Source of the DNA: Escherichia coli
GTDB taxonomy: Bacteria > Pseudomonadota > Gammaproteobacteria > Enterobacterales > Enterobacteriaceae
NCBI RefSeq assembly: GCF_003334315.1
Contig: NZ_QOWR01000106.1
Direction: 5' to 3' (one strand)
DNA length: 3,030 nucleotides
The notes beneath the pieces were generated by a model. The model was not told the origin of the DNA, searched no databases, and worked only from the letters and a program-made list of their open reading frames with translations. A program made the position numbers and the translations under genes. Below, one piece after another: positions 105 through 3,030 of the stretch. The stretch's first letter is position 1, and every line of letters starts with the position of its first letter.

Positions 105-113
105 AAGGTTAAG
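93..113 (-). promoter_or_regulatory. 3' half of the 23S terminal/processing stem (last 9 nt of 23S plus 12 nt of trailer)
   Basis: Plus-strand 93..113 (cttcggcgttgtaaggttaag) is a near-perfect reverse complement of 3004..3023 (cttaacctcacaacccgaag). In the transcript the two 23S ends and their flanks pair into a long duplex, the known RNase III processing substrate for pre-23S. Confidence 0.8.
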
Positions 114-340
114 CCTCACGGTTCATTAGTACCGGTTAGCTCAACGCATCGCTGCGCTTACACACCCGGCCTATCAACGTCGTCGTCTTCAACGTTCCTT
201 CAGGACCCTTAAAGGGTCAGGGAGAACTCATCTCGGGGCAAGTTTCGTGCTTAGATGCTTTCAGCACTTATCTCTTCCGCATTTAGCTACCGGGCAGTGC
301 CATTGGCATGACAACCCGAACACCAGTGATGCGTCCACTC

Positions 341-355
341 CGGTCCTCTCGTACT
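341..355 (-). other. Sarcin-ricin loop (helix 95), elongation-factor binding site
   Basis: Reverse complement of 341..355 is AGTACGAGAGGACCG, the universally conserved SRL motif. Counting from the 3' end places A2660 at window position 349 and G2655 at 354. Confidence 0.9.
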
Positions 356-441
356 AGGAGCAGCCCCCCTCAGTTCTCCAGCGCCCACGGCAGATAGGGA
401 CCGAACTGTCTCACGACGTTCTAAACCCAGCTCGCGTACCA

Positions 442-475
<34 letters not shown>

Positions 476-476
476 A

Positions 477-604
<128 letters not shown>

Positions 605-944
605 AGAACCACCGGATCACTATGACCTGCTTTCGCACCTGCTCGCGCCGTCACGCTCGCAGTCAAGCTGGCTTATGCCATTGCACTAACCTCCTGATGT
701 CCGACCAGGATTAGCCAACCTTCGTGCTCCTCCGTTACTCTTTAGGAGGAGACCGCCCCAGTCAAACTACCCACCAGACACTGTCCGCAACCCGGATCAC
801 GGGTCAACGTTAGAACATCAAACATTAAAGGGTGGTATTTCAAGGTCGGCTCCATGCAGACTGGCGTCCACACTTCAAAGCCTCCCACCTATCCTACACA
901 TCAAGGCTCAATGTTCAGTGTCAAGCTATAGTAAAGGTTCACGG

Positions 945-956
945 GGTCTTTCCGTC
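945..956 (-). other. Macrolide/lincosamide/streptogramin-B binding site (A2058/A2059 region)
   Basis: Reverse complement of 945..956 is GACGGAAAGACC. The A2058 and A2059 equivalents are at 951 and 950 (t on the plus strand, A in the rRNA), i.e. wild-type. Confidence 0.9.
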
Positions 957-1026
957 TTGCCGCGGGTACACTGCATCTTCACAGCGAGTTCAATTTCACT
1001 GAGTCTCGGGTGGAGACAGCCTGGCC

Positions 1027-1124
<98 letters not shown>

Positions 1125-1745
1125 CAAGAGCTTCGCGTTACCGCTAACCCCATCAATTAACCTTCCGGCACCGGGCAGGCGTCACACCGTATACGTCCAC
1201 TTTCGTGTTTGCACAGTGCTGTGTTTTTAATAAACAGTTGCAGCCAGCTGGTATCTTCGACTGATTTCAGCTCCATCCGCAAGGGACTTCACCTACATAT
1301 CAGCGTGCCTTCTCCCGAAGTTACGGCACCATTTTGCCTAGTTCCTTCACCCGAGTTCTCTCAAGCGCCTTGGTATTCTCTACCTGACCACCTGTGTCGG
1401 TTTGGGGTACGATTTGATGTTACCTGATGCTTAGAGGCTTTTCCTGGAAGCAGGGCATTTGTTGCTTCAGCACCGTAGTGCCTCGTCATCACGCCTCAGC
1501 CTTGATTTTCCGGATTTGCCTGGAAAACCAGCCTACACGCTTAAACCGGGACAACCGTCGCCCGGCCAACATAGCCTTCTCCGTCCCCCCTTCGCAGTAA
1601 CACCAAGTACAGGAATATTAACCTGTTTCCCATCGACTACGCCTTTCGGCCTCGCCTTAGGGGTCGACTCACCCTGCCCCGATTAACGTTGGACAGGAAC
1701 CCTTGGTCTTCCGGCGAGCGGGCTTTTCACCCGCTTTATCGTTAC

Positions 1746-1763
1746 TTATGTCAGCATTCGCAC
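1746..1763 (-). other. Cryptic pentapeptide mini-ORF inside 23S rRNA (E-peptide, GTG-CGA-ATG-CTG-ACA-TAA = fMet-Arg-Met-Leu-Thr); not a conventional gene
   Basis: Minus-strand reading of 1763..1746 is GTGCGAATGCTGACATAA, preceded by GGAGG (complement of 1772..1776) 8 nt upstream. It corresponds to canonical 23S positions about 1235-1268. It is silent in intact ribosomes and reported to be translatable only from rRNA fragments. Confidence 0.6.
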
Positions 1764-1920
1764 TTCTGATACCTCCAGCATGCCTCACAGCACACCTTCA
1801 CAGGCTTACAGAACGCTCCCCTACCCAACAACGCATAAGCGTCGCTGCCGCAGCTTCGGTGCATGGTTTAGCCCCGTTACATCTTCCGCGCAGGCCGACT
1901 CGACCAGTGAGCTATTACGC

Positions 1921-1960
<40 letters not shown>

Positions 1961-2003
1961 TGTCTGGGCCTTCCCACATCGTTTCCCACTTAACCATGAC
2001 TTT

Positions 2004-2036
<33 letters not shown>

Positions 2037-3003
2037 CTTCACGACGGACGTTAGCACCCGCCGTGTGTCTCCCGTGATAACATTCTCCGGTATTCGCAGT
2101 TTGCATCGGGTTGGTAAGTCGGGATGACCCCCTTGCCGAAACAGTGCTCTACCCCCGGAGATGAATTCACGAGGCGCTACCTAAATAGCTTTCGGGGAGA
2201 ACCAGCTATCTCCCGGTTTGATTGGCCTTTCACCCCCAGCCACAAGTCATCCGCTAATTTTTCAACATTAGTCGGTTCGGTCCTCCAGTTAGTGTTACCC
2301 AACCTTCAACCTGCCCATGGCTAGATCACCGGGTTTCGGGTCTATACCCTGCAACTTAACGCCCAGTTAAGACTCGGTTTCCCTTCGGCTCCCCTATTCG
2401 GTTAACCTTGCTACAGAATATAAGTCGCTGACCCATTATACAAAAGGTACGCAGTCACACGCCTAAGCGTGCTCCCACTGCTTGTACGTACACGGTTTCA
2501 GGTTCTTTTTCACTCCCCTCGCCGGGGTTCTTTTCGCCTTTCCCTCACGGTACTGGTTCACTATCGGTCAGTCAGGAGTATTTAGCCTTGGAGGATGGTC
2601 CCCCCATATTCAGACAGGATACCACGTGTCCCGCCCTACTCATCGAGCTCACAGCATGTGCATTTTTGTGTACGGGGCTGTCACCCTGTATCGCGCGCCT
2701 TTCCAGACGCTTCCACTAACACACACACTGATTCAGGCTCTGGGCTGCTCCCCGTTCGCTCGCCGCTACTGGGGGAATCTCGGTTGATTTCTTTTCCTCG
2801 GGGTACTTAGATGTTTCAGTTCCCCCGGTTCGCCTCATTAACCTATGGATTCAGTTAATGATAGTGTGTCGAAACACACTGGGTTTCCCCATTCGGAAAT
2901 CGCCGGTTATAACGGTTCATATCACCTTACCGACGCTTATCGCAGATTAGCACGTCCTTCATCGCCTCTGACTGCCAGGGCATCCACCGTGTACGCTTAG
3001 TCG

Positions 3004-3023
3004 CTTAACCTCACAACCCGAAG
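3004..3023 (-). promoter_or_regulatory. 5' half of the 23S terminal/processing stem (first 7 nt of 23S plus 13 nt of leader)
   Basis: Reverse-complementary to 93..113 as described there. Pairing brings the mature 5' and 3' ends of 23S together. Confidence 0.8.
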
Positions 3024-3030
3024 ATGTTTC
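3011..3030 (-). other. Last 20 nt of the spacer upstream of 23S (precursor leader, 16S/tRNA-23S ITS)
   Basis: Sequence immediately 5' of the mature 23S end in the transcript (GAAACAUCUUCGGGUUGUGA). It is complementary to the 3' trailer at 93..104. Confidence 0.75.

Follow-up and report, generated by a model that had tools for sequence, protein, structure and literature searches.

The window carries a complete 23S rRNA gene

The window, meaning the whole 3,030-nt stretch of Escherichia coli DNA that was analysed, contains a 23S rRNA gene on the minus strand at 105..3010. The gene was assigned by a match to the bacterial LSU rRNA model Rfam RF02541, which was complete and ran from window 3010 to 105 (2874 bits, model positions 1-2925), and by chromosome identity. 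The whole window was 100% identical to several E. coli chromosomes in which the matching region is annotated as 23S rRNA, and it was found at 38,112 places in complete E. coli genomes. In the best-matching genome this 23S copy lies between purH and yjaA, with a 16S gene, a tRNA-Glu gene and a 5S gene around it, and occupies the rrnE position. The annotation of the matching genome assigns window 1-9/11 to the start of a minus-strand 5S rRNA gene, and window 3011-3030 is spacer upstream of the 23S gene. Judged by eye, the flanks of the 23S gene at 3011-3030 and about 85-104 are complementary to each other, as they should be if they form the stem at which RNase III processes precursor 23S rRNA.

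When the rRNA strand was aligned globally to K-12 rrlB (b3970), six substitutions and one 2-nt insertion after position 1869 were seen. The gene measures 2906 nt as compared to 2904 nt because a small hairpin at window 1135-1145 (23S about 1866-1876) has two nucleotides more than its counterpart in each of the seven K-12 rrl copies, reading GCGGUAACGC in the window and GCGCAAGC in the K-12 copies. From its letters the longer hairpin resembles a GNRA-type loop that has an additional closing pair. Five terminator-like hairpins were counted over the whole window as compared to 2.3 expected. All five lie within the rRNA and they are probably rRNA helices followed by U-rich runs.

A pentapeptide mini-gene lies in domain II of the 23S rRNA

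The minus strand of window 1743..1776 reads GGAGGTATCAGAAGTGCGAATGCTGACATAAGTA, a 34-nt segment that corresponds to domain II positions 1235-1268 of the 23S rRNA. Direct reading of this segment gave a Shine-Dalgarno (SD)-like GGAGG at 1772..1776 (23S 1235-1239), followed by an 8-nt spacer, UAUCAGAA, at 1764..1771 (23S 1240-1247), which the Rfam consensus structure shows as the 3' side of the stem at the base of helix 46. The spacer places the canonical GGAGG at a suitable distance from the mini-ORF GUG CGA AUG CUG ACA UAA at 1746..1763 (23S 1248-1265), in which the GTG start occupies window 1763..1761 and the TAA stop 1748..1746, with GUA after the stop. The mini-ORF translates as VRMLT*, and with fMet at the GUG start the five sense codons give MRMLT (fMet-Arg-Met-Leu-Thr). 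The preliminary description had read the same GGAGG, 8 nt and GTG CGA ATG CTG ACA TAA on the rRNA strand, and both direct reading and translation confirmed it.

The same description had proposed an alignment of the segment to rrlB 1235-1268. As there is no indel before position 1869 in the global alignment, window 1776..1743 matches rrlB 1235..1268 exactly (34/34), and this placement was upheld. The segment aligned nowhere else in the 23S rRNA and no substitution was seen in the GGAGG, the GUG or the UAA. The 34-mer is identical in all seven K-12 rrl copies, and a search of 5,426 complete E. coli genomes found it at 100% identity in every one, with 37,866 places in total. The reading that the match is a coincidence, with the segment coming from another 23S region or another organism, carries next to no weight, as it is refuted by the exact identity with rrlB 1235-1268 and by the 100% identity of the window to E. 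coli chromosomes.

The mini-gene is the published E-peptide mini-gene, which Tenson et al. 1996 reportedly placed at 23S 1235-1268, with MRMLT as the peptide. In the PNAS work of Tenson, DeBlasio and Mankin from 1996, mutations of the start codon, mutations of the stop codon and nonsense mutations are said to have abolished resistance and a suppressor tRNA to have restored it. The E-peptide was reportedly found in that work to act in cis, on the ribosome making it, and random-library pentapeptides unrelated to rRNA are said to confer resistance likewise. We know of no natural expression of the E-peptide. The preliminary description had also linked the segment to a reported 23S pentapeptide ORF associated with erythromycin resistance, and published accounts of the over-expressed fragment agree, with statements in three of them that over-expression of this SD-adjacent pentapeptide ORF of E. 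coli 23S rRNA results in erythromycin resistance (PMC5179076; PMC3203614; PMC11841355). In the relevant passages of the same sources, expression of the E-peptide is seen only under fused strong (forced) promoters and its physiological role is called unclear.

Set against the E-peptide reference (Tenson, DeBlasio and Mankin, PNAS 1996; Dam et al., J Mol Biol 1996), the window holds the same organism, the same gene, the same positions and 34 of 34 identical nucleotides. The mini-gene itself is unchanged, and the window copy differs in having U1211 and the hairpin near 1870 that is 2 nt longer. We are highly confident in identifying window 1743-1776 (minus strand) as the known E-peptide mini-gene, and in regarding its capacity to code as a by-product of the rRNA sequence. 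The feature was described in 1996 and there is nothing new in the identity of the segment. The mini-gene is part of all E. coli 23S genes, and meeting it in one more rrl copy of this species therefore brings no new knowledge.

The mini-gene is folded into helix 46 and a long-range helix

Base-pairing was read from the Rfam consensus structure. The upstream part of the mini-gene belongs to the helix 46 hairpin, 23S 1196-1250, which lies on the minus strand at window 1761..1815. Of the SD bases, G1235-A1237 occupy an internal loop of this hairpin. The next three bases, G1238, G1239 and U1240, are paired to C1208, C1207 and G1206, and 1241-1247 form the basal stem with 1198-1204. At the start codon G1248 and U1249 form a bulge, and G1250 has C1196 as its partner, a pair that covariation supports. 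Further into the ORF, 1256-1261 (GCUGAC, from the third base of codon 3 to the second base of codon 5) are in a long-range helix with GUCAGC at 23S 579-584 (window 2427..2432, minus strand), a pairing that covariation also supports. This helix closes domain II, and its brackets open at model positions 619-624 and close at E. coli 1256-1261. The first base of the stop codon, U1263, is also marked as paired.

Folding predictions pointed the same way. The predicted MFE of helix 46 was -18.0 kcal/mol with the U1211 of the window and -19.0 kcal/mol with the C1211 of rrlB, and the predicted P(unpaired) of A1237-G1239 within helix 46 was at most 0.01. The Rfam structure, covariation and folding thus each place the SD in 23S secondary structure (helix 1198-1247), where it is sequestered in the intact rRNA. 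A published account likewise puts the pentapeptide SD inside 23S secondary structure and reports that domain II mutations make the peptide easier to translate (PMC5239772, with Tenson and Mankin 2001 and Dam et al. 1996 as its sources).

Folding of the isolated 34-mer gave a weak predicted hairpin of -4.6 kcal/mol, as compared to -18 to -19 kcal/mol for helix 46. In this hairpin G1238 and G1239 were predicted to pair weakly with AUGCU of the ORF, and a fully open SD in the isolated 34-mer was rejected because folding keeps these two bases paired. Modelled deletion of 1219-1230 opened the SD only partly. Since the SD of the folded 34-mer is not fully open, the difference between the sequestered and the exposed state is one of degree, and the predictions support the contrast 'cryptic in rRNA, usable in fragment' in degree and not as all-or-nothing.

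Alignment to rrlB also identified a natural polymorphism, C1211U, at window 1800..1800 on the minus strand, in the internal loop of helix 46 opposite the SD base G1235. Position 1211 is U in the window copy and in K-12 rrlA and rrlH, and C in rrlB, rrlC, rrlD, rrlE and rrlG. With U1211 as compared to C1211, the predicted P(unpaired) of G1235 went from 0.15 to 0.58 and the predicted stability of helix 46 fell by 1 kcal/mol. An apparent G at 1211 in K-12 rrlA was rejected as a numbering artefact of an extra upstream base, there being no mismatch over 1177-1724 in the alignment.

Conservation of the mini-gene across bacteria follows the rRNA structure

Conservation was surveyed with one scan of a species-representative genome collection using the anchor AGTANCGANAANNNNNGTGANAANC at 23S 1265-1289, directly downstream of the ORF. 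This anchor is neutral to the SD, the start codon and the first two bases of the stop codon and fixes A1265. The scan returned 120 loci from many phyla, of which 115 were extracted and aligned to give 100 distinct rows, a biased sample in which no Actinobacteria were recovered. GUG was present at 1248-1250 in 71 of the 100 rows, and in 67 it opened an ORF of exactly five codons closed by a stop. The full form, GGAGG with GUG and five codons, was seen in 28 rows, nearly all from alpha-, beta- or gamma-Proteobacteria. All but one of these encode MRMLT, the exception being a deltaproteobacterial-type row with MLMLT, and the stop is UGA or UAA. Peptides were typical of lineages, with MRMLT in Proteobacteria, MRMPV in Firmicutes and MRMSA in Cyanobacteria. 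Firmicutes mostly had GGAGC together with MRMPV, Cyanobacteria were without the SD, and Bacteroidota had AAG at the GUG position and a UAG that comes earlier in the frame. The stop position was conserved in the sample (U1263 97%, R1264 99% and A1265 100%, the last fixed by the anchor). A non-conserved stop, taken from the 'cgA' at 1263-1265 in the Rfam consensus line, was rejected on the finding of U-R-A at this position in 97 of 101 sampled rows.

Some 23S fragments from MAGs had a sequence type at odds with their label. A 555-nt contig in a Marinamargulisbacteria MAG (L059) had a gammaproteobacterial-type segment, and loci labelled 'Gammaproteobacteria' (L121) and 'Eudoraea' (L009) carried a myxobacterial-type segment. 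The sequence types suggest that these three are mis-binned rRNA contigs.

The same rows were informative on the pairing of the segment. The pair 1208:1238 was C-G in 71 rows and G-C in 17, and the pair 1207:1239 was G-C in 37 rows and C-G in 30, both demonstrating covariation. Pairs between 1198-1202 and 1243-1247 were 99-100% canonical with compensatory changes present. For 1256-1261 against 579-584 there were 16 distinct combinations in 84 loci, and 95 of 96 pairs were canonical. Changes at residue 4 of the peptide (L to P, S or Q) and at residue 5 (T to V, A or E) tracked compensatory changes in the helix. No indels occurred between start and stop in the survey rows. Start and stop were unassociated, with the stop missing in 4 of the 71 rows with GUG and in 0 of the 29 rows without it. 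On these alignments the segment appears to evolve as rRNA and not as a gene.

A different explanation is that the mini-gene is a selected gene. Wild-type cells would translate it from unassembled rRNA precursors or from fragments left by rRNA decay, for example at times when macrolides disturb ribosome assembly, and would so gain built-in inducible low-level macrolide tolerance. We consider this improbable. In its favour, the complete SD-GUG-five-codon arrangement is kept in 28 of 29 GGAGG-bearing sequences from alpha-, beta- and gamma-Proteobacteria, with the stop varying only between UAA and UGA, and the 67 of 100 rows with GUG and a five-codon ORF come from diverse sequences. Mutations in domain II of the full-length rRNA are also reported, in a secondary account, to permit translation (Dam et al. 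1996), which would mean that rRNA-derived templates reach ribosomes. Against it, every element of the ORF falls on bases under rRNA pairing or near-universal conservation, start and stop show no association, and Bacteroidota lose the start and keep the rRNA structure. Passages in reviews report expression only under forced promoters (PMC5179076; PMC3203614), and the residue at position 3 is Met and not the Leu or Ile described for optimal resistance peptides (PMC10314930).

Wide conservation of the ORF cannot be used as evidence for a gene, because the SD, the frame and the stop are explained by rRNA pairing together with conserved bases. The retention of the full arrangement in Proteobacteria would also be expected under coding selection, so a selected function keeps a small share of the probability. 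In 100 anchor-biased sequences we found no conservation beyond rRNA structure that would mark a selected coding gene, and we likewise found no promoter-like site for the mini-gene. It is most likely that the coding capacity is a by-product of rRNA sequence constraints and that the mini-gene is not a selected gene.

SD-led ORFs are expected by chance in the rRNA strand

Chance expectation was assessed with 1000 dinucleotide shuffles of the rRNA strand, scored for GGAGG with a start codon 5-10 nt downstream. The shuffles averaged 2.2 GGAGG-led ORFs per sequence, and 37% of them held one or more with a length of 3-7 codons. In the rRNA strand itself there are five GGAGG-led ORFs at four GGAGG sites, the mini-ORF included. 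The others are on the minus strand at window 885 (43 and 17 codons), 733 (10 codons) and 694 (2 codons), which correspond to 23S about 2124, 2276 and 2315, with the start codon 7-10 nt after the GGAGG. To our knowledge there is no experimental precedent for any of these, and they show how readily SD-led ORFs arise in G-rich rRNA. Statistical enrichment of the SD and ORF pattern was rejected, the shuffle average of 2.2 placing it not beyond chance, and the mini-ORF owes its significance to the published experiments and to nothing else.

The pattern being within chance also bears on a further explanation, that resistance comes from the RNA fragment itself, which would titrate the drug, ribosomal proteins or assembly factors and leave the ORF irrelevant. 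The chance result favours this reading, as does the origin of the fragment in a part of domain II that contacts protein and RNA. It is opposed by the genetics reported in 1996, comprising the start, stop and nonsense mutations, the suppressor tRNA and the unrelated library pentapeptides. Passages in secondary sources also credit the expressed peptide, with length and termination requirements (PMC5179076; PMC2928234; PMC3203614; PMC11841355). An effect of the RNA without the peptide is therefore very improbable in our judgement.

The automated ORF track overlooks the mini-ORF, as had been pointed out in the preliminary description, the minimum of the tool being 20 aa. The further remark there, that no other ORF of the window has experimental precedent, is plausible. 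Mechanical ORFs of 26-76 aa overlap window 1459-1933 on both strands inside the rRNA gene, examples being a 76-aa ORF at 1703-1933 (plus strand) and a 39-aa ORF at 1669-1788 (minus strand). ORFs inside rRNA genes are described as often mis-annotated as hypothetical proteins (PMC3203614).

A search for sigma-70-type promoter-like sites over the whole window found 0 on either strand as compared to 1.7 expected from shuffles. No dedicated internal promoter was evident from this result, which also counts against the mini-gene as a selected gene.

Proposed explanation and comparison with known systems

In the explanation that we propose the segment is primarily structural rRNA. It contributes the 3' strands of helix 46 and of the helix closing domain II, with a short junction between them, and only incidentally can the same letters be taken as GGAGG, 8 nt and a GUG-started ORF of five codons with UAA as its stop. 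Base-pairing occupies the SD and much of the ORF within the assembled 50S subunit, where the mini-gene would accordingly be expected to stay silent. If a short fragment without its 5' pairing partners were over-produced, or if helix 46 were destabilised by mutation, initiation at the GUG would, following the literature, yield fMet-Arg-Met-Leu-Thr. The nascent pentapeptide would then act on its own ribosome and, as in the 'bottle-brush' model of the literature, drive erythromycin out of the exit tunnel when translation terminates, resulting in resistance. We infer that only rRNA precursors or fragments from rRNA decay could serve as a natural template.

The closest relatives of the E-peptide in action are the library pentapeptides (Tenson et al. 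1997; Tripathi et al. 1998; Vimberg et al. 2004; mechanism in Lovmar et al. 2006), with which it shares a length of 4-6 residues, a mini-gene and drug ejection at termination. A requirement for 4-6 residues, the 'bottle brush' action and ejection of the drug at termination are described for resistance peptides in the relevant part of PMC2928234 (citing Lovmar et al. 2006), and Leu or Ile at position 3 is described as important in passages of two further sources (PMC10314930; PMC5239772). The library pentapeptides are made from designed mRNA, whereas MRMLT lies inside rRNA, and they favour Leu or Ile at position 3 together with hydrophobic residues. MRMLT is within the library-consensus length of 4-6 aa with its five residues, but it has Met at position 3, Leu at position 4 and a C-terminal Thr, and so has neither Leu/Ile at position 3 nor the hydrophobic C-terminal part. 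This mismatch with the consensus fits only low-level activity.

The erm and msr leader peptides ErmCL, ErmBL and MsrDL share with the E-peptide that they are short nascent peptides contacting a drug-occupied exit tunnel. They stall the ribosome and regulate a downstream gene, whereas the E-peptide terminates, is proposed to dislodge the drug and has no regulated downstream gene. Resistance peptides and leader peptides have been proposed, in passages of two papers, to be mechanistically related, with the location of the stop codon setting the outcome (PMC2928234; PMC10314930). Short bioactive ORFs in rRNA genes are also described for mitochondria, with humanin and the SHLPs in 16S rRNA and MOTS-c in 12S rRNA (PMC11841355). 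These mitochondrial peptides are 16-24 aa long and unrelated in sequence, organism and function, and unlike the E-peptide they have reportedly been detected as endogenous peptides.

The E-peptide is the classic bacterial translatable ORF within rRNA and it founded the study of peptide-mediated macrolide resistance. One further idea, which we rate as quite a long shot, is that macrolides or stress produce unassembled or fragmented 23S rRNA from which the mini-gene would be translated, giving a self-induced low-level ejection of the drug, with C1211U-type polymorphisms tuning the opening of the SD. If natural expression were true, rRNA would be a dual-function molecule in bacteria.
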